Assembly: GCA_963701295.1 (NCBI GenBank)
Contig: OY969585.1
Span: 736,001 to 800,000, forward strand
Length of the DNA: 64,000 bases
Direction of reading: 5' to 3'
DNA from: Ignavibacteriota bacterium
GTDB lineage: Bacteria; Bacteroidota; Ignavibacteria; UBA10030
Shown here: positions 1,097 through 20,788 of the stretch, one piece after another
Layout of the letters: each line of letters begins with the position of its first letter
Numbering within the stretch: the stretch's first letter is position 1
The notes under the pieces: generated by a model
What the model saw: only the letters and a program-made list of their open reading frames with translations
Database searches by the model: none
What the model was told of the DNA's origin: nothing
Translations under genes and position numbers: made by a program

Positions 1097-1803
1097 TCAC
1101 TTCCCTGTCAACCTAAATTGGAACGGTATCGATACCCACACAGTCACTGGTTTTCCTTGCATAAGTGCCGGAGTAAAGACCCATTTTTGAGCAGCCGCAA
1201 GAGCTGATTCAGTAAAAACTTCATCGCTTGTTTTCCCGAGCAATGCCTTTTTAACTTTTCCATCTTTATTAAGCAGTACCTGAACAATGACTGTTCCTTC
1301 TATTCCGGCACGTTTAGCAATATCTGGATATTCTGGAACTGCTCTGAAAATGATCATAGGCTCACACTCGGTTGGATGGTACTCAGTGGATAGCGGATCC
1401 TGATCTTTAATTTTGAGATCGACATTTTCAGAGACATCGCCTACTTGTTCCCACCCACGATCTGCTTGACGAGCCAAGTCTTCTTGACCAGCAAATAGTA
1501 TTTCCGGTTTCACATCACAATCAGGTATTGGAACCGGTACTCCAAAAGATAATTTTGCCGGTATGTGCAGAATGGCTGAAAATGCAGTGGGTGGATGAAT
1601 TGGGGGTGGAAGAAACATGTTGGATCAATAAGAATTGTTCTTTTGGGAGGATCAATCGGCTTTAACCATTCAGCAAGATGGTAGGCACCAATCACCATTA
1701 TCTGAACCGTAATGGCAATCAACATTGCCAGCATCATATAGCGATGATGAACTTGGCGAAGTTCCAGATATCCGTATGGGGTCGGGGCAATGAGCGTTTT
1801 CAT
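1097..1803 (-). CDS. tonB: Energy transducer TonB, split by a frameshift near 1620
   Basis: ORF 1510..1803 gives the N-terminal TM anchor (RBS GGAGAG). ORF 1097..1618 gives the Pro-rich linker and TonB_C (PEYPDIAKRAGIEGTVIVQV...WVFTPA...IPFQF). One extra base near 1620 joins them. Confidence 0.85.
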
Positions 1804-1910
1804 AACAGTCTCTCCTTTCCTATTTGAATGTGGACTTGATTGTTTGTATCATTTCGCTGCAATCTCCATTCACCTTCTTCTTATGAATGACATAAACAGA
1901 CGAAAGGTAA

Positions 1911-2495
1911 ATGCAAACACCTTTATTTTTTCTCAATAATGACTCGAAACTGCTGGATGCGTTACGAAACGGCAATGATCAAGTATTGGTGGAGCTTTTT
2001 CAGAAGAATCGTCGGTCCATCACCTCTCTTGTTCTAAGAAATCAAGGTACGGAGGATGACGCAGAAGATATTCTTCAAGAAGCATTGGTGGTACTCTGGG
2101 AGAAAATCCGCAGCGGTTCATTCGAATATCAGGCAAAAATGAGCACGTATATCTATGCTACAGCAAAAAACATATGGTTTCGGCGCTTGGCACGGCGACG
2201 GCGGGAAGTTCCTGCAACCAATGAAGCCTTTGAAGTGGCAGCGGAAGATACAACGCCTCAGGAAGAATTGGAGGAAAACGAGCGTATTACCGCTGTTCAA
2301 CATGCGCTGGAACAGATCGGAAATCCCTGCCGTAATATCCTTCTTCTTTATTATTGGGAGGAACAATCGATGGAAGAAATTGCATTAAAACTCGGTTTTG
2401 CAAATGCTGATACAGTGAAATCAAAAAAATATCAATGCAAGAAAATGCTGGGACGGCTCGTGAAAAAAGTGCTTGGAGGTAACAGCGAGCAATGA
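1911..2495 (+). CDS. ECF RNA polymerase sigma factor
   Basis: Region 2 (DDAEDILQEAL...STYIYATAKNIW) and region 4 (SMEEIALKLGFANADTVKSKKYQC). Confidence 0.93.
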   Translation: MQTPLFFLNNDSKLLDALRNGNDQVLVELFQKNRRSITSLVLRNQGTEDDAEDILQEALVVLWEKIRSGSFEYQAKMSTYIYATAKNIWFRRLARRRREVPATNEAFEVAAEDTTPQEELEENERITAVQHALEQIGNPCRNILLLYYWEEQSMEEIALKLGFANADTVKSKKYQCKKMLGRLVKKVLGGNSEQ

Positions 2496-3226
2496 AGGAA
2501 AAGAATTCGCAGCACTGGGCATCTGACCCGGAAAAAGTTGAAGCGTTTGTCCTTCATCGGATTAATGAATCGGAAAGAGTCTCCTGTACCACACACTTGA
2601 ATCAATGCGAAGGATGCCGTCGCGCTGTACAAGAAGAACGAGAACTTGTTGCGGGGATACGATATGTCGGCCGCAAAGAAATGAAACTTCGGCTGAAGCA
2701 ATGGATACAACATGATCAAGGAACACGATTTGATTGGACGCAAATAGCAAGCCTCGCTGCGGCAATTGTACTTATGCTCGGTGCGGTGTTTACCATCAGA
2801 TGGTTTACTGATTTTAATCAAATCAAAACACGGTTGCATGAAATTGTTCTTAAGAGCGATAATTCTTCACAGCGTTCAACATGGATAATCGGAAAAGTTG
2901 TAGAACAAAAAAGAGTTTTTCGAGGAACAATTTTAAAAAACAGTTCTTTGTTTATTCTTAAACAAGGAAATGTGACACGGACTGTTTCCATTCGGAGTGC
3001 TCTGACTGCCGAGCTTCCTTTAACAATGAGAACATCTGATGAATCGAATCTTCAAACGTTGTTCGAGCGAACCCCAGATGGTTTGCAACTAACCATTTAT
3101 TCAATTCCTGCATCAAATTCTGCTATAACTGGGATCGAAGCAGTAACAGCAGATTCGCTTATCGTGTATTTCCAGGGTCAACAGATTGCATATCATATCC
3201 CAGGCGGTTGGGCTGGAAAGATATAA
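2492..3226 (+). CDS. Membrane-anchored zinc-finger (HxxxCxxC) anti-sigma factor
   Basis: HLNQCEGC motif, one TM helix (IASLAAAIVLMLGAVF), ATGA overlap with the sigma gene. Confidence 0.8.
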   Translation: MKEKNSQHWASDPEKVEAFVLHRINESERVSCTTHLNQCEGCRRAVQEERELVAGIRYVGRKEMKLRLKQWIQHDQGTRFDWTQIASLAAAIVLMLGAVFTIRWFTDFNQIKTRLHEIVLKSDNSSQRSTWIIGKVVEQKRVFRGTILKNSSLFILKQGNVTRTVSIRSALTAELPLTMRTSDESNLQTLFERTPDGLQLTIYSIPASNSAITGIEAVTADSLIVYFQGQQIAYHIPGGWAGKI

Positions 3227-5597: not shown

Positions 5598-8082
5598 TCA
5601 GAACATAAATCGATATAAGATGCTAAAGACTACATCACTTGCGTTGTCCGAATTCTTGATAAAATCGAACTGGCTGACGAGATAATGATTTTCCCTTACC
5701 TGATACTCGGCGCCAGCTTGCAGAAGAAGCCGTTTAAAATCACCGAACGATGGGGCCACCGTTGCCAGCAGATTAAGCCGATCATGCATTATCCGATATC
5801 GTGCACCAAGTGAAATAGTTTGATAATTGAACATCTGTTTCTGTGTTGTATTTAAATATACTTGTTGCACTGAATCCCATGCAGAATACGAGGCAGTATG
5901 ACTCACAATGACTCCAATGGTTGTTTGCAGCGGAATAGAAAAGAACGAAGAGATCATTGTAGAAAAGTTAATATTGTCTTGATCACGCTTGTAAAATGTA
6001 TTGTCTTTTTTGTTTGCTATACTGACGGATGCCGTTAGGCTATTCCGTACAACCATCTGAAAATCGTAATTCATGGCAATAAAAAATCGGTCGGTCTTTT
6101 CTGAAGCAATGCTGAGTGAATCGATTTGTGTTGTATCGATAGATAGATCGATAGGGTTCTTTCGGGTATTCAGACCATACCCAATGGTGAACGATGGAAG
6201 CTCTGCACTTGGATACGCTGTTATAGATGTATTCAATGTATTGTACGTTGTTGTCGGTGTAAGTGCATCATTCTGCGTGTTATTGCTTTTGGTTTCGTAC
6301 GAAGCGCTCGCCATGATTTTATTGTTGAACATCCGAACACGATCGGAGATATTGATGCCGGCAATATCGTTCTGAACAAAATCATTGCCAAACGATGTAT
6401 ATGAAATACCTCTCCGGAACACCATGGCGCGAAGATAATTGTTCAAGTAATTCAAGGAAAGTTCCGATTCGAACGCAAGCGACGGCATTCCTTTTATCGG
6501 GTTCAGTGGCGACAGACCAGAATTAATAGTAATAATGGAACGTACGATCTTAGCAACCTTTTTTAAATCATCGGCTTCTTTCTTGGCATCCTCAATTTGC
6601 TCGGGTGTTTTCGTTGGATCATTGACACCTTCAAATTCATCAATCTCTTCATCAGTATAGCTGCCTGGTGAAATATCGTTGTTCTCAAGACTAAATACTG
6701 CCTGGCTTGCCCACCTCACCTTCTGATTATCAAATGCAAGCAGCAAATCAGCGCCTGCTACAACATTCTCCTTCGGATACGTTCCATAAGTAATAGAACC
6801 TTCATCATCTTTCGCTTTCATATAAGTGAGACCGAATTGGAAGTTTTCTCCGCTGCCAAAGCTTGGACGTATGGCTAAAAAGTTGCGCGCATATGCGCCA
6901 GAATTAAAGAGTCGGTACCTGAAGTCCGCCGAGCGGTATTGCTTCGTTCGGATGTGCGGCTGCTGAAGAAGAATCGGCATACACTGTATCTCGAATGTTC
7001 GTGCCCTCGATAGCGCGATCCGTTTTCCCGTACGATACATCAAGATTAAAAAAACCGAGTGTGACTGAACCTGTAATACCACGCACACGTTTGCCGCTCA
7101 CAATGAGCGAAGGAAACTGCGGATACGCATCGCCAATTTGCACTTTTGCATAATCAGCTTCTTGGAATGTTGCAAGAAATCTATCCTGCGGCTGTAAGTA
7201 CGGTTTTTCTTCATTCGTCAAGTGCATATCACCGCTGAAGAGGAAATCTTTATACGAACCTCCTACATGAGCGTCCCCGCGTACATATGTTGTCGTAGCA
7301 GAATCGACCTTCTCGTTCCGGAATTCAGCCTGCGCATTACCGGTATATTGAAGCGAAGATTTTTGTTCTTCTATGGCCGTGGCAGTGGAAAGATTAAAAT
7401 TCTCCTGTTTCGTATAATATATATTTCCCAGCGTATCTTTCAGTTCTATTCTAATTGAGTGTGCACCAAAATTGAGCGGCTTATCAAAATTCTTTGGGCT
7501 GTACAGCAGCACATCGTCTGATAGTAACGCTTCCCTTGTGACATCTGCCCCATCAAGGTAGATGCGAGTACGCTTTTTATCAACGATGTCTGAAGCATAC
7601 ATCAACGATACAGCAACGGCAAGATCTTCTGCCGCGAGTGTCTCACCGGGTTCGGGGCTTAGGAAACGCACTTCAAGATCTTTCACGTCTACTTCTTTGA
7701 CCTGAATTTTTAGCGGATTCGTTTCAGGGTTTTCAGAGGGAAATGTCGCTTGTTTGTTATCGGCAAGTTGCATGCCGATATAATACTCAATGTATGGCGG
7801 TGTCATTGCCTTAGCCGGTATTGTCGCAACTGCGGTGCGCCCGGAGAGGAGCATGTCCGTTTCTTTAAATTCCGACTTTCCAAATTCCCGATAGTGAAGC
7901 ACTACTCTGCGAATCTGAGTATTCTGTGTCAGTTCTACGCTGAGTGAAAGTGGTGTCTTCTCATTGGCTGTCGGTACTTTGACTTCGATAACATATTGGC
8001 TGACCTGCCCATATACAATCGGAAGAAACATCGTAATGAGGAAGAGCGAGAAGACGAGGGTTTTGGAGAGTGTCCTGTTCAT
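5598..8082 (-). CDS. Secreted Ig-domain plus outer-membrane beta-barrel protein, split by a frameshift near 6918
   Basis: Signal peptide from ATG 8082, two Ig-like N-terminal domains, amphipathic beta strands across both ORFs, C-terminal beta-signal (SILYRFMF). ORFs 6904..8196 and 5598..7088 overlap. Confidence 0.78.
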
Positions 8083-8131
8083 ATCAATTACCTTCAATGA
8101 TGTGTACTGCTCGAATTTTTGAATCGAAGAC

Positions 8132-8167
8132 AAAAAGAAACGGCGGGTTATGTTATGCCCGTCGTTC
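8132..8167 (-). terminator. Possible intrinsic terminator/attenuator between the FecR-domain gene and the barrel gene
   Basis: Minus strand ACGACGGG-N10-CCCGCCGT (one mismatch) followed by TTCTTTTT. Confidence 0.5.
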
Positions 8168-8216
8168 AATTTATAAAAAGCATCTATATGAAGCAAGACC
8201 TGAAAAAGTAGTATCT

Positions 8217-9230
8217 TTATTCATTCCATCTTAACACGATTACTTTCTCTTGTAAAGAGCCGGTTTGACCAGGTATGCGAAGTTCGTACTGAACCGCCTC
8301 TACCGGAACAGCGGCTGGTTTTGTTGTTCCATCCTGTGGCACTAGCGTTATAGAGCCATCATTCAGTTTGATAGAGAGATAATATTCAAGTTTTGGATAT
8401 TTTACTTTGTTCGCCGGCAATTGACCCGTTGCAACCTGCCCTGTAATGGTCAAGGGAAGTTCGGTATACGTTTGTTCATTCTGTTTCCGATAAAAGAGGC
8501 TGGCAGCTATTGCTTTTCCTTGAAACGAAGATAAGTTGGCACGCACTGAACCGGTTTGTTTTGATTTAAGTTGACTGAACTCCGGACCAATACCGCCAGA
8601 GTCGATATTTCCTAAGTTTTGGCTCTGTCTTATATTATTTAAAATCAACGCACTCGCTTTGCCGACATTGAATTTGCCGCTACTGTCAGCAACACCAGTT
8701 TGTCCTGCACCAACGGGTCCCTTCTTACCAGATATGGAATTTGTAAATTCGGCAAGACCCTCGGCAATAGTCAAAGAATCTGCTTTGCCGCCGGAAACAT
8801 AACCGCCGAGCGTTCCGCGAATGGACGCAACAGAAATGGGAGATGAGAACCGGAATTGTTCCGTTTCTGCTTTCTTCACATCGAAAATTATATCCCCGCG
8901 ATCCATATGAACACTGCGGCTGAGAATTTCTTTTCCCTTCACTTCACCTTTAATCGTGACAATAGATTTTTCACGGAGAATCAGTTTCGATTGATCCGCA
9001 AAAAGAATCATCGCCAAGGATCCTTTATCCGTTTTCACTTCATAACCGGACTTTAACGTGCTCAATGGAACTGCTTTCTGCCATCCCTTTGTAGGAGATT
9101 TCATGTTTACATCCCGAATGACTTTCACTACGTAGGCAGAGATATCTTTTTTGTCTTGTTTTCCTACTTGCCCCAGTGAAAACATTCCAAGGAATATAAA
9201 AACACCGATTACGATAATCTTCTTTGTCAT
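8217..9230 (-). CDS. Secreted FecR-domain protein with C-terminal Ig-like domain
   Basis: Signal peptide; FecR pattern (LKSGYEVKT...ILFADQSKLILREKS...SPISVASIRGT...IAEG...VGAGQ). Confidence 0.85.
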   Translation of the reverse strand: MTKKIIVIGVFIFLGMFSLGQVGKQDKKDISAYVVKVIRDVNMKSPTKGWQKAVPLSTLKSGYEVKTDKGSLAMILFADQSKLILREKSIVTIKGEVKGKEILSRSVHMDRGDIIFDVKKAETEQFRFSSPISVASIRGTLGGYVSGGKADSLTIAEGLAEFTNSISGKKGPVGAGQTGVADSSGKFNVGKASALILNNIRQSQNLGNIDSGGIGPEFSQLKSKQTGSVRANLSSFQGKAIAASLFYRKQNEQTYTELPLTITGQVATGQLPANKVKYPKLEYYLSIKLNDGSITLVPQDGTTKPAAVPVEAVQYELRIPGQTGSLQEKVIVLRWNE

Positions 9231-9248: not shown

Positions 9249-10376
9249 TTATTGGTTTTCAACACTCAGATCGAGTTTCACATCTTGCTGAGTGGAGAGC
9301 TCTTTCAGCAACACTTGCAGGTCGCTTTCTGAAAGCATAGTACCATTCAATGTAATGTTCCCATAGGGGGACCACGGTATCCATTTCGTTGGTTCTGCTC
9401 GAAGTGTGGAATAGGTTGCTGATGTGTTCCCTGAAACAGAATTTAAAAAGTAATCGAGGATGTTTCCGAGATTATCATTTGTGATCCGAAAAACGACCGG
9501 TTGACTTATGCTTTTCAATGGACCATGAGAAGATGAGACGTTTGCTTCTACTTGAAGAACGTATGCTTTGTCTTGTTGAAGCAGACGTTTAGCATTTGCT
9601 GGATATGTAAGTGTATTTGTTCCAATAACATTTTCTTCTAGACATGGATTACCTCCAGTGAGCACATCTTGAGGCGAGTGATGATTCAATCCTGCTTCAT
9701 AGACACGAACGGTGACATTGGGTTCTGTAGATGTCCAACTGAATGTCGGCGCTAAATTATTGGAGTAACTTCCATTCATGGGGTCATTGATTTCTACAAA
9801 AACTTCATCCACAGATGAATATGGAATGACAATAGTTTTCGAATCTGCTCCATAGACAGCATTCGGATTTGCAACACCCTCCATCACTTTCACTGTGATG
9901 TAATAGGTTCCTGGAGGTGCCGTACCAGTGGTTTGTGCAAAATCTGTTATCCTTTTCTTGAGATCCGAATTCTCGATTGAGTTCCCGGAAAGTGGATAGA
10001 GTACAGCACTTCCAGGTATTACAAAGTCAAGTGCAGTAAGCGTACGCCTTCCGGTAAAGTCGAAGGGGTTTGAAAGTCCTTCTAACAATTGCCCTGGATG
10101 AGCATCACCCCGCAGCTGAACGAGCACTTTCATATAGATGCGGATTTGTAGGTGCGGAATTTGTTGCGCTCCAACAAGATCCACAGAAAATCCAGAGACG
10201 GCAGAATTCAACTTCTGTGTCTTCGCATTAATAAGATCGGTAAGATAAAGAATATCATACTCATTGATGTTGATTGTAGTAGTTATTGTGTTCTGAGCAT
10301 CTGCTCGCGCGAACCACGGTCCTAAGGCGAGCACAGTGAATATGAACACAAGTAATTTCATACGGATGCTTTTCAT
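9249..10376 (-). CDS. Secreted hypothetical protein with Fn3/Ig-like module
   Basis: Signal peptide ending ARADA, RBS GGAG; pattern PMNGS...PTFSW...LTYP...LQQDKAYVLQVEA...SQPVVF. Confidence 0.75.
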   Translation of the reverse strand: MKSIRMKLLVFIFTVLALGPWFARADAQNTITTTININEYDILYLTDLINAKTQKLNSAVSGFSVDLVGAQQIPHLQIRIYMKVLVQLRGDAHPGQLLEGLSNPFDFTGRRTLTALDFVIPGSAVLYPLSGNSIENSDLKKRITDFAQTTGTAPPGTYYITVKVMEGVANPNAVYGADSKTIVIPYSSVDEVFVEINDPMNGSYSNNLAPTFSWTSTEPNVTVRVYEAGLNHHSPQDVLTGGNPCLEENVIGTNTLTYPANAKRLLQQDKAYVLQVEANVSSSHGPLKSISQPVVFRITNDNLGNILDYFLNSVSGNTSATYSTLRAEPTKWIPWSPYGNITLNGTMLSESDLQVLLKELSTQQDVKLDLSVENQ

Positions 10377-10467: not shown

Positions 10468-11826
10468 TTAAAAATTTATGACGTCATTATACAGAACGAA
10501 CGCCATAAACACAAGCAATAATATAAATCCCGCTTGCTGAATAACAATTTTCACTTTACTTGGCACTTCACGTCGGAATACAGCTTCATACGCCAAAAAC
10601 ATAAGATGCCCGCCATCAAGCGCGGGAAATGGAAGAATATTAATCAAGGCAAGGCTAATACTTAACAAACCGATGAATCCAAAAAATTCTATCAATCCGA
10701 TGTCTGCTGATCTCTTTGCCATTTGGGCAATTTTTACTGGTCCACCCATCGATTTAAGCGAAGCCTTCCCAACAATTAATTGGTACATATTGGAAAGAAA
10801 GAGAACACTCGTAAATTGAAGTTCTTGGACACCAGCCGGAAGCGCTTCGAAAAAACCATATTGTCGTCGTTTGAACGGCCCTTGATAAACACTTGCGATT
10901 TGAATACCAATTCTGCCCTCCGAATTCGGAGTCACTTTTGCAGTCATCTTCTGTTCACCGCGCGCCCAAGTGAGGAGAATTTCCTTGCCTTTATTTAAGT
11001 GAATGAGTTCAGGAAGCATTCCGGCGCTGACTGGAATTCCATTGACCGCGATAACCGTATCTCCCGGCTGAAGGTCTATCTTTCCTGCAGGTTTTTCCTT
11101 ATCAACATCGACGATAAGTGGAACTTCACCAATCGGATTTATTCCGAATCGCTCTTCGGTAAGATCAGAAATGTCCGTACGGTGAATCGTAACAGTAATG
11201 GCTGCACCTAAACGCTTCAGGTGGAAGGTAAGGTCATGCGTCACTGATTCTGTATAGATGGAGCTCTCAATTTCATCCCATTGTTGAATCGGATGATCAT
11301 TAATTGAGAGAATCTCGTCACCAACATGCAGACCTGATTTCGCAGCGACACTATTTGGTGTTATGTAGCCAATCTCCGTTACCGGACGAATCGTCTTGCC
11401 CTGGTAATAAATAATTCCCCAGAAGATTAAGACAGCGAGAAGAAGATTCATAATTACACCAGCGGAAATAACGATCATGCGCTGCCATATTGGTTTTGAT
11501 CGGAATTCCCATGGCTGTGGTTCTTTATTTAAGAATTCCGTGTCCATGCTTTCGTCGATCATACCCGCAATTTTTACATAGCCGCCAATAGGAAACAGAG
11601 CAACGCGGTAGTCGGTATTCCCTTGCAGATCGAAATCATTTTTCAATGAACCGAATGTAAATTTACTGATCTTGTTCCAACCAAAAACGCGATTGCCCAT
11701 TCCGAACGCAAATACTTCGGCACGCATTCCGCATGCAATCGCCGCAAGAAAATGTCCAAACTCATGTACCAGTACCAGAATGCCGATGGTAATAATAAAA
11801 TAGAATAGTGTGCTTAGTATGGTCAT
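10468..11826 (-). CDS. rseP: RIP metalloprotease RseP (M50, two PDZ domains)
   Basis: VHEFGH, PIGGYVKIAG, INILPFPALDGGH; adjacent to dxr. Confidence 0.96.
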   Translation of the reverse strand: MTILSTLFYFIITIGILVLVHEFGHFLAAIACGMRAEVFAFGMGNRVFGWNKISKFTFGSLKNDFDLQGNTDYRVALFPIGGYVKIAGMIDESMDTEFLNKEPQPWEFRSKPIWQRMIVISAGVIMNLLLAVLIFWGIIYYQGKTIRPVTEIGYITPNSVAAKSGLHVGDEILSINDHPIQQWDEIESSIYTESVTHDLTFHLKRLGAAITVTIHRTDISDLTEERFGINPIGEVPLIVDVDKEKPAGKIDLQPGDTVIAVNGIPVSAGMLPELIHLNKGKEILLTWARGEQKMTAKVTPNSEGRIGIQIASVYQGPFKRRQYGFFEALPAGVQELQFTSVLFLSNMYQLIVGKASLKSMGGPVKIAQMAKRSADIGLIEFFGFIGLLSISLALINILPFPALDGGHLMFLAYEAVFRREVPSKVKIVIQQAGFILLLVFMAFVLYNDVINF

Positions 11827-11876
11827 AGGTTTAATTCATTCTTGCTCTATTCATGTATGCTTTTTAACGCTGGAGG

Positions 11877-13031
11877 TTACAATAAAGTTCGTACGTATTC
11901 CCGTGTTTTATGGTCGCTGTGAAAAATATGCTCTAAATCAGGTGAGAGATGGTTGGTCTGTTTGGTGAGCGCCTGTTCGATAAGCTCAGGAATTCGATGA
12001 AATGAGATTTTTCTCTCTAAGAATGCCTGCACTGCTACTTCGTTTGCCGCGTTCATAATAGTGGGAGCAGTTCCACCTAAAGCAATCGCATCATATGCCA
12101 ATTGCAGGCAGCGAAATTTTCCCCGATCCGGAGTCAAAAATGTCAACAAGTGAAGTTTAGGAAAGTCTACTCTGCCTCCACCGAGTTGAACACGATCGGG
12201 ATAGGTGAGGGCATACTGAATCGGAATTTTCATATCCGGCAAGCCAAGCTGTGCTTTGATCGAACCATCAATGAACTCAACCATCGAATGAATGATGGAT
12301 TGCGGATGGATCACTACATCGATGCGTTCCGTCGGCATGTCGAACAACCAGTGCGCTTCAATCACCTCCAACCCTTTGTTCATCATCGTTGCGCAGTCGA
12401 TGGTAATCTTATTGCCCATTTTCCAATTGGGGTGATTCAGAGCTTTCTCTACTGTAATCGATGCAAACTCTTCCTTCGGCATATTCAAAAATGGCCCGCC
12501 TGATGCGGTCAGAATAATTTTGGCAATGCGGCTCCATTGCTCGCCGGCAAGGCATTGTAAAATAGCGCTGTGTTCGCTATCGATAGGGAGAAGTGAAACA
12601 CCATATTCCTTTGCCATGGAAGTTACTAATTGTCCCGCTATGACGAGGGTTTCTTTGTTGGCGAGCGCAATGTTTTTGCAATGTTTGATAGCTTCGATAG
12701 TCGGCTTCAATCCAGCAAATCCGACAAGGGAATTGACGACAATATCGACATCATCCCGGCGAACTATTTCCAGAAGACCTTCGCGTCCGGTCAGGACCTC
12801 AACCGAATCATCCACAATTGTTCGCAGCGCTGCGGCTTTTGCTTCATCCAACACAACGACACCGCGCGGCTTAAATTGTGCTATCTGGCTTTGGAGCAGC
12901 TCGATATTAGTGTTGGTGGAAAGATAGGTAACGCAAAATCGGTCTGAAAGATTATGGATGACCGATAGGCTGTTGCGGCCTATCGAACCGGTCGAGCCAA
13001 GAATGGCTATATTCTTTGGAGTTTGACTCAT
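11877..13031 (-). CDS. dxr: 1-deoxy-D-xylulose-5-phosphate reductoisomerase
   Basis: ILGSTGSIG, LANKE, PIDSEH, TASGGPF, HPNWKMG, NAANE. Start placed at ATG 13031. Confidence 0.97.
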   Translation of the reverse strand: MSQTPKNIAILGSTGSIGRNSLSVIHNLSDRFCVTYLSTNTNIELLQSQIAQFKPRGVVVLDEAKAAALRTIVDDSVEVLTGREGLLEIVRRDDVDIVVNSLVGFAGLKPTIEAIKHCKNIALANKETLVIAGQLVTSMAKEYGVSLLPIDSEHSAILQCLAGEQWSRIAKIILTASGGPFLNMPKEEFASITVEKALNHPNWKMGNKITIDCATMMNKGLEVIEAHWLFDMPTERIDVVIHPQSIIHSMVEFIDGSIKAQLGLPDMKIPIQYALTYPDRVQLGGGRVDFPKLHLLTFLTPDRGKFRCLQLAYDAIALGGTAPTIMNAANEVAVQAFLERKISFHRIPELIEQALTKQTNHLSPDLEHIFHSDHKTREYVRTLL

Positions 13032-13177
13032 CACATTTAAATTTAAGGTAATCAAAATCGGTAGGCATGTCAAGGAAGCCATTTCCATCCCTTTTATTAG
13101 GACTGTTTCGCAAATCGTTTCTCCTTTTTGTATATTGATGGAAAGATAAGGAACAAACAATAAGGAGAAGGGAAGTC

Positions 13178-15261: not shown

Positions 15262-17097
15262 TTACATTGGTATTGAGTGAACGAGTGCCTTTTCCTTCTT
15301 CTTTGCTTCTCCGTTCGTTTTCCATACAAATATTCCACGCTTCGTATATGTTGTATGGAGAAGGTGATGTGACAATTCGCCTAACGGCTCTTTCAAAAAA
15401 TCTTTGTACAATGCAACGATTTGTGGATTCTCATGCGACTTGCGAATTTGCTTATTGACATCCTCGTTGTAAATCGATTCGGCTCTCTTTTTCCTGATCT
15501 CCCACGTTGTGGGAATCGGCTGACCGCCGCCGCCGAGACATCCGCCCGGACATGTCATCACTTCGACAAAGGCATACGGCGATTCTCCTTTTTCCACTTG
15601 CTCTAATATTCGCCTTGCATTTTTTAACGTGTGTGCGACCGCAACTTTTACTTTCGTGCCGTTCATATCTACTTCTGCTTCCTTAATTCCATCCATGCCG
15701 CGGACTGTTGTAAAGTTGATGTCTGTGAGTTTTTTTTCTGTGACTACCTCATATGCCGTTCGGAGTGCTGCTTCCATAACACCGCCGGTTGCACCGAAGA
15801 TGACCGCAGCTCCTGTCGATTCGCCCAAAGGATGATCAAATTCCTCCGCCGGAAGATCGGAGAACCGAATTCCAGATTCTTTGAACATCCGGGCAAGCTC
15901 TCTCGTTGTCAACACATAATCGACATCATAGAACGCATCGTCGTTCACCATTGCTTTTTTTTCTTTCCAGTATTCGAAGGCGCTCATCATCTCAGGGCGT
16001 TTCGCTTCATATTTCTTCGCTGTACATGGCATGATCGAAACGACAATAATTTTTCTTGGGTCAATTCCCATCTTTGCAGCATAGTACGTTTTCGCGATCA
16101 CACCGAACATTTGCTGAGGCGATTTGCAGGTGGAAAGATGTGCGAGTGAATTGGGAAAGAAATGTTCTGCAAATTTGATCCACCCAGGCGAACATGAGGT
16201 AATCATTGGCAAAACACCCTTATTGGTAATTCGTTTAATGAGTTCATGCCCCTCTTCCATAATTGTTAAATCGGCAGTGAACTGTGTATCAAAGACCTTG
16301 CTAAAACCGAGTCTCCGCAGACCGGCAACCATCTGCCCTGTCACAAGAGCGCCGGAATCCATCCCCATCGCCTCACCGATGCCGACACGAATTGCAGGAG
16401 CGGTTTGCACAATCACTACTTTATCCGGATTAATAATTTCTTCAAAAACAGCGTCGGTATCATCACGTTCAACGATTGCTCCGGTAGGACATACTAACGC
16501 GCATTGTCCGCAATTGATACAGGCAACATTGCCGAGTCCTTTTTCCATATATGTTGAGATTTTAGTCTTGATCCCTCGTTTAGAAAGACCAATAGCGCTC
16601 ACCGTCTGCACCTCGGCACATACAGCGATACATCTTCCACAGAGAATGCACTTATTTGGATCGCGGATAATGGAGGGTGAAGTTTCATCCAACGATTCTT
16701 CCTTCTTGGTACGGACAAATTGTTCTTCCTTCACACCCAGATCGGCAGAAATCGTTTGGAGCTCGCAATTCTGATTGCGTAAACACGACAGGCAATCTTT
16801 CGGATGATTGGCAAGCAATAATTCGATGTTTGTTTTTCTCGCATCACGAACACGCGGTGTGTGTGTTGCAATTTCCATTCCTTCGTTCACACAAGTTGAA
16901 CAAGACCGCACCAATGATCGTGCCCCTTTAACTTCAACCACACAAACACCGCACGAAGCATTGCGAGCAACATCTTCGAGATAGCACAGCGTCGGGATTC
17001 TCATCCCTGCACGTTTGCATGCATCCAGAATTGTCATGCCTCGAGGAACTTGATGTTCGTTTCCGTTAATTTTAATATTGACTATTTTCTTTTCCAT
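15262..17097 (-). CDS. hydA: [FeFe]-hydrogenase group A catalytic subunit (HydA/HndD type)
   Basis: N-terminal [2Fe-2S], HxxxCxxC and 2x[4Fe-4S] motifs; H-cluster motifs TSCSPGW, MPCTAKKYE, EVMTCPGGCLGGGGQP; RKSHENP...LLHT tail. Start at ATG 17097. Confidence 0.97.
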   Translation of the reverse strand: MEKKIVNIKINGNEHQVPRGMTILDACKRAGMRIPTLCYLEDVARNASCGVCVVEVKGARSLVRSCSTCVNEGMEIATHTPRVRDARKTNIELLLANHPKDCLSCLRNQNCELQTISADLGVKEEQFVRTKKEESLDETSPSIIRDPNKCILCGRCIAVCAEVQTVSAIGLSKRGIKTKISTYMEKGLGNVACINCGQCALVCPTGAIVERDDTDAVFEEIINPDKVVIVQTAPAIRVGIGEAMGMDSGALVTGQMVAGLRRLGFSKVFDTQFTADLTIMEEGHELIKRITNKGVLPMITSCSPGWIKFAEHFFPNSLAHLSTCKSPQQMFGVIAKTYYAAKMGIDPRKIIVVSIMPCTAKKYEAKRPEMMSAFEYWKEKKAMVNDDAFYDVDYVLTTRELARMFKESGIRFSDLPAEEFDHPLGESTGAAVIFGATGGVMEAALRTAYEVVTEKKLTDINFTTVRGMDGIKEAEVDMNGTKVKVAVAHTLKNARRILEQVEKGESPYAFVEVMTCPGGCLGGGGQPIPTTWEIRKKRAESIYNEDVNKQIRKSHENPQIVALYKDFLKEPLGELSHHLLHTTYTKRGIFVWKTNGEAKKKEKALVHSIPM

Positions 17098-17114
17098 AGA
17101 ATATTTTTTCTCTC

Positions 17115-20100
17115 TTAATCCTGATCTTGGCATTTGACATCACATCGCAAGCAGCGAGTAGCTTCTTGGAGTGCTTCTTCTCCGCTGTACCCGGAAAGAA
17201 CTTCCTGAAAGTTTGAAACTCTTTCTTTTACAGCAAGCATTTTCGGTTTCACCATTTTCCCGCCTTCTGGTTCCGGCATTACTTCATCTTTATATTTGAA
17301 GTCCCTGAACAATCGATGGAACCGTTTCTCCTTCATCAGATCGAAGTCAATCGCTTCAGAGGCATGGCGGGCAATTCCCATCGCTTCGGAAACTGTTGCT
17401 GGTCCTGTCACTGCATCACCGCCAGCATAGATTTTCGGCAGGTTGGTTCGATAACTCGGTTGATGCACTTTTACTGCGCCATTCTTTCGAAGTTCCAGAC
17501 CGATTTCTTTTGCCGATTCAAAGTCCACTTTTTCACCAACTGCAAGAATAACCGCGCTGCATTCAATAATTGCCGTTTCGCCTGTCTCAACAGGCCTCTT
17601 TCTTCCTGAGCTGTCGAAACCGTCGAACTTCATTTTATGAATTTCAAGCCCTGTCACTTTTCCTTTCAAGTCACCAATGATTCGGTGCGGCGCCGACATA
17701 AACATAAATCGAATGGTTTCATCGATGGCGTCTTTAATCTCATGTTCATTAGCCGGCATTTCATCTCTATCACGACGATAGACGACCGTTACATCGGCTC
17801 CCAATCGAAGACACGAACGTGCGGCATCGATCGCCACATTGCCCGCACCAACCACGACGACATTCTTGCCAAGATGGAGCTTTTTTCCGCTGGCAAATTC
17901 TTCAAGGAATTCGTAACCCTGAATGACTCCGTTAAGATGTCTGCCTGGGATGTCAAGTTCAATATCTTTCTGAGCACCGACGGCAAGGAAGATTGCATCG
18001 CTTTGTTTTTGCAGATTCTTGAAAGACAACTCTTTGCCAACACGCGTATTGAAGACAAACTTGACACCCAGTTTCTTGAAAAGATCGAGCTCTTTGTTCA
18101 GACTGTCTTTTGGCAACCGATATGCAGGAATGCCATATTGCAGAATTCCTCCTGCTTTCGCATGGCTGTCATAGACTGTAACATTGTGACCAAGACGAAC
18201 GAGAAAATATGCCGCCGTCAATCCAGCTGGTCCCGCACCCACGATGGCAATTTTCTTTCCGGTTGGTGAAAGTCTTTCTTTGATCAATCGTTGATAGATC
18301 GCTTTTTCTTTGCCCATCTTGTACATCGTGTCGGCAAGATAACGATGAATCTCTCCCTGCGAAACGGGATCGTCGATTGTATCCCTGCGGCATCGCATCA
18401 TACAGTGAAAGTAACAAATTCTTCCGACGGTTCCCGGAAGTGGATTGTCACGCAAGGTCAACTCGAATGCTTCTTCAATTCTTCCTTCCTTGAGAAGCTG
18501 CAAATAGCCGGGGATGTTCATATGGAGCGGGCAGCTGTTTTCGCATAGAGCCATAAATAAACTTTCGCACACACCAGCCTTGCATCGTTTTTGGATGATG
18601 TGCTTCTCGTACTCATCACGAAAATACCGCAGCGTGGATAGTACAGGATTCGAACTCGTTTGTCCCAATCCACAGAGTGAAGAATCACGAATCACGTACG
18701 CTAATCGTTCAAGCGTATCGAGATCTTTCATGGTTGCGTCACCGTGTGTAATTTTATTGAGAATAGCGAGCGCCTGCGCAAGTCCTTCACGGCATGGTGT
18801 GCATTTGCCGCATGATTCAGCATATGTCACTTCAACGAAGTACCGTGCAACATCCACCATACAATTATCCTGATCCATCACAACCATTCCACCGGAACCC
18901 ATAATCGTTCCAAGTTTTGTGAGGGACTCATAATCGACCGGGGTATTAAAATGTTCAACGGGTATGCACCCTCCCGAGGGGCCTCCCGTTTGTACAGCGC
19001 GGATCTTTTTCTTGTTACCTGTGCCTTCACCCATCTGATAGATAATATTTTCCAGCGGTGTGCCAAGCGGTAATTCCACTAGTCCGGTATTTTTAATTTT
19101 ACCAACAAGTGAAAAAACTTTTGTACCGGTACTGGTCGGCGTTCCGAATTTAGCAAATTCATTACCACCGATCATAACAATGACAGGAACATTGATCCAT
19201 GTTTCCACGTTATTGATATTTGTGGGCTTTCCCCACAATCCTTTTTGTGCTGGATACGGAGGACGAGGTAAGGGACGGCCTGCTCTTCCTTCAATCGATG
19301 CAATAAGTGCGGTTTCTTCGCCGCACACGAAAGCGCCAGCTCCTTCAACATAACAAAGATCAAAACTAAACGATGAGCCGAAAATATTTTTCCCGAGAAT
19401 GCCGTATTCTCTAGCAGCGGCAACAGCTTTCTTGAATCGCTCGACGGCAAGCGGGTACTCGGCTCTCACATACATCACGCCTTCAGATGCACCCATCACA
19501 TATGCACCGATCATCATTCCTTCGATGAGTGCGTGAGGATCGCTTTCGATCTCATTCCGGTTCATATATGCCCCCGGGTCGCCTTCATCTGCATTGCAGA
19601 TGATGTATTTTTGGTCGGCATCAACTTTTTTCATCATCTCCCACTTGATCGCTGTGGGGAACCCAGCTCCTCCTCGTCCGCGAAGTTTTGAATTCTTGAT
19701 CTCCTCGAGAACATTGTCTTTCGAAAGATGAGTGAGCGCCTTCATGAGTGCACTATAACCGCCAATACCGATATATTCTTCAATATCTTCTGGATTGATA
19801 AGACCAGAATCGCGGAGAACAATTTTCTTTTGTCCTTTGAAGAAAGGGATTGCCTTCCATAATGGCACAGTGCTTAATCCTGTGCCGAATTCAACCTTGG
19901 AAGTAAAGAAATCCCATTGCTCTATCCTGCACAGTGCTTTTTTTTGCGGTATCATTCCTCTGGATAAACCATAGACAATATTCTCGGCATCCTTTGGTTT
20001 CACTTTATGCAAGATGACCAGCGGCTGCCCTGGTATATAACAATTGACCAGAGTTTCTTCGGCACAAAAACCAAAACATCCTGTTATAGAGAGTTCGATC

Positions 20101-20270
20101 TTTGCCCTTTGTGCTTTTATAGCTTTCTGCAGACTTTCGTACACATCTTTCGCACCATTGCCCATCCCGCATGTTCCCATACCAACAGAAATTTTAGGGA
20201 CGTCAGGGAGAAGCTTCTTCAGCCCTTGCTGTTGGATTTTTTCTAATGTTGAAGCGTCAACAATCTTCAT
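17115..20270 (-). CDS. NuoF/HydB-like FMN/NADH subunit fused to a GltD/NfnB-like FAD/NADP(H) domain
   Basis: Thioredoxin-like N-domain, LRGRGGAGFP, NADEGDPGAYM, GAFVCGEET, GGPSGG, ESCGKCTPC; then CENSCP...NPLP..VGRIC, GAGPAG, YGIPAYRLP, GAGNVAIDAAR, VYRR, YAGGD, EATRCLRC. Confidence 0.93.
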   Translation of the reverse strand: MKIVDASTLEKIQQQGLKKLLPDVPKISVGMGTCGMGNGAKDVYESLQKAIKAQRAKIELSITGCFGFCAEETLVNCYIPGQPLVILHKVKPKDAENIVYGLSRGMIPQKKALCRIEQWDFFTSKVEFGTGLSTVPLWKAIPFFKGQKKIVLRDSGLINPEDIEEYIGIGGYSALMKALTHLSKDNVLEEIKNSKLRGRGGAGFPTAIKWEMMKKVDADQKYIICNADEGDPGAYMNRNEIESDPHALIEGMMIGAYVMGASEGVMYVRAEYPLAVERFKKAVAAAREYGILGKNIFGSSFSFDLCYVEGAGAFVCGEETALIASIEGRAGRPLPRPPYPAQKGLWGKPTNINNVETWINVPVIVMIGGNEFAKFGTPTSTGTKVFSLVGKIKNTGLVELPLGTPLENIIYQMGEGTGNKKKIRAVQTGGPSGGCIPVEHFNTPVDYESLTKLGTIMGSGGMVVMDQDNCMVDVARYFVEVTYAESCGKCTPCREGLAQALAILNKITHGDATMKDLDTLERLAYVIRDSSLCGLGQTSSNPVLSTLRYFRDEYEKHIIQKRCKAGVCESLFMALCENSCPLHMNIPGYLQLLKEGRIEEAFELTLRDNPLPGTVGRICYFHCMMRCRRDTIDDPVSQGEIHRYLADTMYKMGKEKAIYQRLIKERLSPTGKKIAIVGAGPAGLTAAYFLVRLGHNVTVYDSHAKAGGILQYGIPAYRLPKDSLNKELDLFKKLGVKFVFNTRVGKELSFKNLQKQSDAIFLAVGAQKDIELDIPGRHLNGVIQGYEFLEEFASGKKLHLGKNVVVVGAGNVAIDAARSCLRLGADVTVVYRRDRDEMPANEHEIKDAIDETIRFMFMSAPHRIIGDLKGKVTGLEIHKMKFDGFDSSGRKRPVETGETAIIECSAVILAVGEKVDFESAKEIGLELRKNGAVKVHQPSYRTNLPKIYAGGDAVTGPATVSEAMGIARHASEAIDFDLMKEKRFHRLFRDFKYKDEVMPEPEGGKMVKPKMLAVKERVSNFQEVLSGYSGEEALQEATRCLRCDVKCQDQD

Positions 20271-20788
20271 GATTTTTTCTTATCCTTAGAAATTTTACCG
20301 ATCAGCTTTTGCAGTTTTGCCGTGGTCACATTACTGTAAATAACTCCATCGATTGCAACAACCGGTGCAAGCGCACATTGGCCAAAACATGATACAGTGG
20401 AAATCGTGAACCGATTGTCCGGTGTAGTAAAGAACGGTTCACCTTCTTCCAGCGATTTGCTGCATCCCAGCATCAGTCCGATGTCATCAAAAAGCGCCTT
20501 TGATCCTTTTGTATGGCAGGCAGTTCCACGGCACACCGTAAGCGTGTGTTGGCCTTGCGGCTTGAGATTAAAGAATGAATAAAATGTAACGACATTGTAA
20601 ATCCTGGAAAGAGGAACACCCATTCTGAGTGCAACGTGGTTTAAGGCTTCTTCTGAAAGATATTTTTGCTCATTGAGGAGTTGCGTCTCTTCAAGAATGG
20701 TCAATAGTTCGCCATGTCGACCTTTATTTTTCGTGACAACCGAATCAATTTGCTGCAATTCCCGCGACAATGTCTGCGTTCTTTCCAT
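20267..20788 (-). CDS. NuoE/HydC-like [2Fe-2S] subunit
   Basis: VVTFYSFF, VCRGTACHTKG, CFGQCALAPV. Confidence 0.95.
   Translation of the reverse strand: MERTQTLSRELQQIDSVVTKNKGRHGELLTILEETQLLNEQKYLSEEALNHVALRMGVPLSRIYNVVTFYSFFNLKPQGQHTLTVCRGTACHTKGSKALFDDIGLMLGCSKSLEEGEPFFTTPDNRFTISTVSCFGQCALAPVVAIDGVIYSNVTTAKLQKLIGKISKDKKKS

Follow-up and report, generated by a model that had tools for sequence, protein, structure and literature searches.

Two neighboring minus-strand genes of an Ignavibacteriota bacterium (GenBank assembly GCA_963701295.1), one for a protein with a FecR domain and one for a predicted outer-membrane beta-barrel, encode the same immunoglobulin (Ig)-like domain, which raises the question of what a shared module does in two different envelope proteins. 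The genes lie in a stretch of 64,000 nucleotides of contig OY969585.1 (positions 736,001 to 800,000), which is called the window here and whose own numbering is used throughout. An earlier note on this DNA had read the module as a common docking or ligand domain that links the two proteins. One homologous Ig-like domain is indeed present in both, and the proposed link is mostly unsupported: the FecR copy is probably an optional spacer that sets length, and the FecR protein is predicted to dock by a C-terminal beta-hairpin on a third protein, which is encoded directly upstream and is called the partner here. The best reading of the locus is a four-gene cassette of the partner, the FecR protein, a predicted 26-strand barrel without a plug, and a CHASE2 adenylate cyclase.

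The gapless match of 54 residues with 15 identities, previously counted by hand, was recovered with both strings on the minus strand. Its exact coordinates are 7738-7899 (barrel residues 62-115) and 8337-8498 (FecR residues 245-298); the lower bounds given earlier, 7699 and 8301, reach 12 to 13 codons beyond the match and are still within the domain. Chance similarity was ruled out by shuffling and by BLASTP. The Smith-Waterman score of the N-terminal half of the barrel against the whole FecR protein was 96, compared with a mean of 36.5 (standard deviation 5.2, maximum 63) for 2000 shuffles, none of which reached 96, and BLASTP of the barrel against the FecR segment found 19 of 70 residues identical with an expect value (E) of 2e-8 for this single comparison. 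Among the 28,041 six-frame open reading frames of the genome, the segments are mutual best non-self matches (E = 5.9e-5 and 3.8e-5; next match, E = 2.3). The full domain comprises about 100 residues (27-130 in the barrel and 212-312 in the FecR protein). In the predicted structures, seven of eight DSSP strands coincide between the copies once an offset of 182-183 residues is allowed for; the AlphaFold models have a predicted local distance difference test score (pLDDT) of 85.7 for the FecR protein and of 89.3 for an intact barrel ortholog. Foldseek matches of the whole barrel model were all taken by the barrel part, and for the barrel copy the agreement in fold is that of the strand register with the FecR copy. 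The DNA of the two segments is identical at 77 of 162 positions, and the duplication is therefore old; recent gene conversion between the two genes was ruled out by this low identity and by the order-level tree, in which the barrel copies are separated from those of FecR at 93/97.

The two copies differ in how constantly they occur. The barrel search, whose query was the C-terminal half without the N-terminal Ig-like domain (D1), gave a strong match in 43 of 121 genomes of the phylum, and D1 is found at 42 of these 43 loci, the remaining one being cut by a contig end; two weak barrel matches (G074 and G077) had no domain match at the locus. The FecR copy does not accompany the barrel copy wherever both proteins occur: it is absent in 34 of 56 genomes, single in 14, and present three times in 8, and database proteins with two (P0292) and four copies (P0256) extend the series. 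Left out of these 56 FecR proteins were that of G008, with a broken frame and one split copy, that of G023, at a contig end, and the second one of G150. The copies are always inserted between the FecR core and the terminal hairpin, and the hairpin is visible in all 52 aligned FecR tails, with or without Ig copies. Stretches of about 50, 158, and 380 residues follow the core in proteins with zero, one, and three copies, and the stretch of the zero-copy proteins is often of low complexity. Ig-bearing proteins form three groups on the tree of the FecR core, the starred branches of which force at least two changes, and one-copy and three-copy forms are both found within one genus. The last copy of the three-copy proteins groups with the single copy of the one-copy proteins at 99/99.

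The constant element of the FecR tail is thus the hairpin, and its candidate binding site was sought in the partner. At the 59 loci considered, the FecR gene is directly upstream of the barrel gene 53 times and the cyclase gene directly downstream of it 56 times, and the genes of the partner and the FecR protein stay neighbors in all five genomes in which the barrel sits apart from FecR. This adjacency in split cassettes was the reason for choosing the pair for complex modelling, which comprised partner residues 28-375 and FecR residues 300-337. The complex had an ipSAE score of 0.73 (runs, 0.73, 0.74, and 0.37), the best of three controls 0.02; the ipSAE mark applied accepts 116 of 157 solved complexes and 2 of 215 mismatched pairs, a calibration that is only rough here, as our own alignments were used. 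At least 65% of contacts are common to the runs, and the partner pLDDT is at least 66. Hairpin residues 314-337 pair in the model with partner strands 332-344 and 366-375, i.e., the hairpin is predicted to complete the beta-sheet of the C-terminal domain of the partner. A sequence search for solved structures related to the partner gave none, so that recall of a known complex is unlikely; neither a Pfam nor an NCBIfam family was found for the partner, and its nearest clusters in the ESM Atlas are unnamed. Two loci deviate in these genes: a second, longer partner-like gene (open frame of 524 amino acids; L149:6169-7740) directly follows the FecR gene in G054, and a second FecR gene of G150 (L150:3521-5884) lacks the hairpin and overlaps with the end of an oppositely oriented cyclase-like gene.

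The module itself is an Ig unit that moves among secreted proteins, and its fold is ordinary. A profile of 45 copies had its best match in the Protein Data Bank (PDB) with the Ig domain of PPAD from Porphyromonas (E = 1.5e-4), with profile positions 14-86 covering chain residues 346-417. Superposition of the FecR copy with the PPAD structure 5ak7 gave a Z score of 10.0 and a root-mean-square deviation (rmsd) of 3.1 over 98 aligned residues. CBM56 and SiiE domains are within 1 Z of this match, and other Ig and fibronectin-type domains are close to the FecR copy as well. The PPAD domain is described as a beta-sandwich of 106 residues, about 50 Å long, between the catalytic domain and the secretion signal (PMC4487231). 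PPAD is thus the nearest known relative by the best PDB profile match and the best fold match of the FecR copy, but it differs in setting, being a secreted enzyme, whereas here the domain is the N-terminal part of an outer-membrane barrel protein or lies within a FecR linker, and in column 44, where the copies described here have alanine and not an aromatic residue. No Pfam model fits the domain (none of the 45 members passes; best, Alpha-amylase_N with E = 0.005), and its nearest ESM Atlas clusters are unnamed. GlgE_dom_N_S and Big_7 were rejected as names for the domain; their scores are summed on tandem arrays, nearly always without a single significant stretch.

The architectures that carry the domain, which the earlier note had proposed to survey with a hidden Markov model (HMM), turned out to be many unrelated secreted proteins, often with tandem copies. 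Searched against 1.84 billion representatives, the profile matched 2485 clusters at E ≤ 0.001. The best 150 of these, which favor repeat proteins because scores are summed, comprise 19 barrels or barrel fragments, 4 FecR proteins, and 127 others, two of which are C-terminal FecR fragments; most have several copies, up to 18-20. Pfam companions in 39 scanned carriers include PKD, beta-helix, lamin-tail, vWA, fn3, and C25 peptidase domains. Within the phylum, 50 of the 121 genomes have a domain match, and the 18 carriers examined outside the cassette include S8 peptidases, deiminases, and GH67-type proteins, 13 of them with a tail of the type IX secretion system (T9SS) type or a FlgD-Ig tail. 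The spread as a promiscuous spacer, which had been named as evidence against docking, is therefore found outside the genome under study and not inside it, where two copies pass. The study thereby defines a widespread Ig repeat of about 2,500 clusters that has no Pfam counterpart. Among individual carriers, P0242, P0243, and P0244 are proteins of 3000-4000 amino acids with 16-20 tandem copies at a spacing of about 110 residues, which in P0242 and P0244 come after beta-helix and PKD domains. The deiminase of G078 (L129:2751-4520) has the layout of PPAD, with a catalytic domain, the shared Ig domain, and a C-terminal Ig tail. A weak possible third copy of the window's genome (E = 0.23) is located near the C terminus of an open frame of 684 amino acids (G000:C1:867447-869498).

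The FecR copies are likely to derive from D1 of the neighboring barrel, perhaps more than once, as judged from their residues and scores. Alanine occupies column 44 in 69% of the copies from barrels and in 73% of those from FecR proteins, compared with 3% of 573 other copies, at least 515 of which have tyrosine, tryptophan, or phenylalanine there; besides A44, P56, and P83, the residues common to barrel and FecR copies belong to the family-wide core. Measured by the median score, all 23 FecR copies tested resemble barrel copies more than they resemble those of unrelated proteins. Columns F27, E31, E36, and Y74 separate the two sets (dereplicated, with 45 barrel, 15 FecR, and 20 other copies): the barrel set keeps them at 64-89% and the FecR set at 7%. 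D1, a single copy right after the signal peptide, is thus likely to have a binding role of its own, to which the FGExE loop, E36, and Y74 point. The two copies of P0292 score 66 and 70 bits with the barrel HMM versus 45 and 52 with the FecR HMM, and this two-copy protein (residues 256-444) may have acquired the barrel domain separately and more recently. Four long rows of other proteins were dropped from the domain trees in two analyses, and near-identical rows of the same genus were pruned in one.

What the FecR copies do can be weighed on this basis. They are closer to the barrel copy than most family members are, the two copies, the only ones in the window's genome, are encoded by neighboring genes, and the FecR copies are conserved within lineages, all of which would fit a tie between the FecR protein and the barrel through domains that bind one another or a common ligand. 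We nevertheless consider this improbable, and the claim of a shared docking domain is probably wrong: 34 of the 56 FecR proteins lack the domain although the cassette and barrel D1 persist, copy number ranges from zero to four, the barrel-specific residues are lost in the FecR copies, what the two share is, with the three exceptions named, family-wide core, and a separate element that is always present, the hairpin, is predicted to dock elsewhere, on a third protein. The same barrel-specific residues suggest a ligand for D1, and one may imagine molecular mimicry, with D1 binding a third component (the partner, CHASE2, or peptidoglycan) and the FecR copies acting as extra or competing sites in some lineages. 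Capture into FecR in three or more groups, the still barrel-like copies of P0292, and the presence of carbohydrate-binding and amylase N-terminal domains among the related folds speak for it; most FecR copies have lost those very residues, however, and tandem growth to three or four copies is the usual behavior of the family in unrelated proteins, so that we see little likelihood in it. Nor is it at all likely that local duplication merely put D1 into a tolerant linker, where copy number has no functional effect. Such a neutral passenger would agree with the many lineages without a copy and with one-copy and three-copy forms inside one genus, but fold-defining residues are kept over long branches and positional identity is retained, the last of three copies grouping with the single copy.

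An optional spacer that sets the length of the FecR arm, together with docking of the terminal hairpin on the partner, is accordingly the account that we regard as probable, and several observations weigh against it. The FecR copies are well conserved where present, which a passive spacer would not need, and the genomes counted are relatives, not independent samples. The predicted complex comes from our own alignments, with one weak run of three, and the hairpin was paired with the partner only. The domain is not promiscuous in the window's genome, in which two copies pass. The best single match is a barrel copy for 15 of the 23 FecR copies when the 573 other copies are included in the comparison, and the 88-column domain tree leaves the direction and number of captures open, a single origin of the FecR copies not being rejected (P = 0.744 in the approximately unbiased test). 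The barrel gene is frameshifted in the window as assembled. The links of the partner-FecR pair to the barrel and of FecR to CHASE2 are inferred from gene order only.

The mechanism proposed for the spacer and hairpin would start from a PPAD-type Ig domain that was fixed as a single copy at the barrel N terminus and copied from there into the FecR linker, where the copies would form a variable spacer between core and hairpin. The hairpin would dock on the upstream partner and complete its sheet, and the pair may be held at the outer-membrane barrel, either in the unplugged lumen or on D1 and the second N-terminal domain, D2. From there the FecR core could extend to the CHASE2 domain that the inner-membrane cyclase exposes to the periplasm, and synthesis of cyclic AMP (cAMP) might change when the barrel receives a signal. 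Each Ig copy would replace short flexible linker by stiffer reach of up to about 5 nm, a value based on the described length of the PPAD domain (PMC4487231). A more far-reaching version is a four-part trans-envelope relay of Bacteroidota, in which the partner fills the lumen of the plugless 26-strand barrel and clamps the FecR arm by a beta-sheet completed across the two proteins, and in which the arm serves as a periplasmic ruler, the first domain of the barrel having been copied into it several times (zero to four units) so as to reset how far it extends toward the CHASE2 cyclase; in this full form we regard it as doubtful.

Barrel-linked CHASE2 cyclases have previously been described, e.g., for Sinorhizobium meliloti, where NsrA, a single protein of about 1200 amino acids with the barrel at 600-1200, is described as an outer-membrane beta-barrel receptor that acts together with the inner-membrane CHASE2 cyclases CyaK, CyaD1, and CyaD2 (PMC7529298, PMC13001267). 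Common to both systems are an inner-membrane CHASE2 class III cyclase and a gene-linked outer-membrane beta-barrel, which is predicted in our case; the barrel of the cassette looks unrelated, the likeness being drawn from published descriptions. The N-terminal half of NsrA is said to hold FecR and TPR parts, whereas FecR is here a separate secreted protein with a hairpin tether, and a fourth protein is added. FecR plus CHASE2 with a variable envelope anchor recurs in clusters described for Campylobacterota and Burkholderia (PMC9239204, PMC5192318); these use LysM or a fused outer-membrane part as anchor, and the cassette a predicted noncovalent hairpin on a separate protein, with a spacer of zero to four Ig copies. 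Another FecR-domain protein of S. meliloti was reported to be dispensable for signal perception, and caution is therefore needed in taking a cyclase-adjacent FecR protein for a relay (PMC5498481). The label FecR for IsmP of P. aeruginosa was dropped, as the word does not occur in the paper.

The FecR core has the fold of the FecR/PupR anti-sigma proteins (PF04773; PupR CCSSD 6ovm, Z 17.8). Those anti-sigma factors have an N-terminal cytoplasmic anti-sigma domain before a membrane helix and a C-terminal STN-like FecR_C domain. The protein described here has no cytoplasmic anti-sigma domain, a 20-residue hydrophobic leader alone preceding the core, which starts at about residue 30; for FecR_C there is no Pfam match at E ≤ 0.1, the model of the tail consists of the Ig domain and the hairpin, and the PupR alignment ends at residue 207. 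A FecR anti-sigma system was ruled out by these two missing domains; a TonB-dependent transducer was found in the cassette neither by Pfam nor among the models, and the output here is a cyclase.

The barrel, 828 amino acids long in the intact ortholog of G001, was described from the model of the intact ortholog P0002, which has 26 strands by our count from the DSSP list, two N-terminal beta-sandwich domains, and no TonB-type plug. TonB-dependent receptors are barrels of 22 strands with an N-terminal plug, and this identity was ruled out by the strand number, the two N-terminal domains, and the lack of any Pfam or NCBIfam match of the barrel. The top Foldseek match of the model is MtrB (6r2q_B; E = 2.9e-10, TM 0.42/0.52, 7% identity, rmsd 12.7), a protein with 26 strands whose lumen is filled by MtrA. 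Shape alone is common to MtrB and the barrel, ushers and TonB receptors scoring nearly equally, and no haem-binding motifs were seen in the partner proteins of the cassette. Three genomes (G054, G126, and G150; loci L109, L110, and L124) have a barrel without cyclase or FecR nearby.

How a barrel communicates with a CHASE2 cyclase across the periplasm is an open question even for NsrA and CyaK, and CHASE2 inputs are described as poorly known (PMC5192318). The cassette splits such a relay into separable parts and offers a testable joint, i.e., a hairpin of 24 residues predicted to complete the fold of the partner, together with FecR arms that naturally differ in length, with zero to four Ig copies. 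Signaling by barrel, FecR protein, and CHASE2 cyclase with such a predicted hairpin joint and length series appears to be new: a description of the cassette was not found in the full-text literature on CHASE2 with FecR, Ignavibacteria, and Leptospira, a scope outside which subscription papers and supplements lie.

Table 1. Features of the cassette and its surroundings in the window
Feature	Position	Strand	Remarks
RseP-type protease gene	10468-11826	minus	first in minus-strand gene run
Upstream partner gene, 375 aa	9249..10376	minus	signal-peptide-like N terminus; secreted
Partner C-terminal domain, residues ~300-375	9252..9479	minus	predicted receiver of FecR hairpin, between strands 332-344 and 366-375
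FecR-domain protein gene, 337 aa	8217..9230	minus	
FecR core domain, residues ~30-205	8616..9143	minus	PF04773, E 4.5e-8; PupR CCSSD, Z 17.8, rmsd 2.5, 139 aligned
FecR Ig-like copy, residues 212-312	8295..8597	minus	0 to 4 copies in relatives; likely spacer
FecR C-terminal beta-hairpin, residues 314-337	8220..8291	minus	two strands in model; predicted docking element
Outer-membrane beta-barrel gene	5598..8082	minus	predicted 26 strands, no TonB-type plug; split in assembly
Barrel N-terminal Ig-like domain D1, residues ~27-130	7693..8004	minus	single copy, right after signal peptide; conserved YRxFGExE loop
Barrel second N-terminal beta-sandwich domain D2, residues ~133-233	7384..7686	minus	DSSP of intact ortholog P0002 model
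One extra base versus relatives, shifts barrel frame	6918..6919	.	absent in G001, contig X2/24, and contig X1/2
CHASE2 - class III adenylate cyclase - TPR protein gene, 756 aa	3300..5570	minus	PF05226, E 7e-44; PF00211, E 7e-26

The partner, the FecR protein, and the barrel each start with a hydrophobic leader followed by glutamine, which is the pattern of cleaved signal peptides in Bacteroidota. Residues 499, 543, and 614 of the cyclase carry what we take to be its catalytic motifs. The frameshift of the barrel gene is probably an assembly error: contig X1/2 shows no difference over the 200 preceding bases and continues without the extra base. A programmed frameshift is not favored, as 30 of 35 orthologs are open and the five breaks are at differing sites. 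Broken orthologs come from assemblies of 1-20 contigs, and two are also broken in other cassette genes; the breaks of G002, G006, G008, and G012 are at other sites than that of the window, and those of G008 and G012 affect several cassette genes.

The sequencing runs share at most 0.17 of words, and no statement on habitat or expression is therefore made. Directly upstream of the cassette, the RseP-type protease gene is accompanied by a presumably Dxr-like gene (10468-13160 for both; the name is our assumption from the sequence). RseP adjoins the cassette in 27 of 35 order-level loci, which may be ordinary synteny; in other systems RseP cleaves FecR-type anti-sigma factors. Just past the cyclase, the window encodes a protein with a TonB C-terminal domain, a sigma factor of the extracytoplasmic function (ECF) type, and a probable anti-sigma protein (1097-3226). 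Three genes farther upstream (15262-20788) resemble what we take to be a multisubunit [FeFe]-hydrogenase, including a presumably fused NuoF-like/glutamate-synthase-like subunit of 1051 amino acids.

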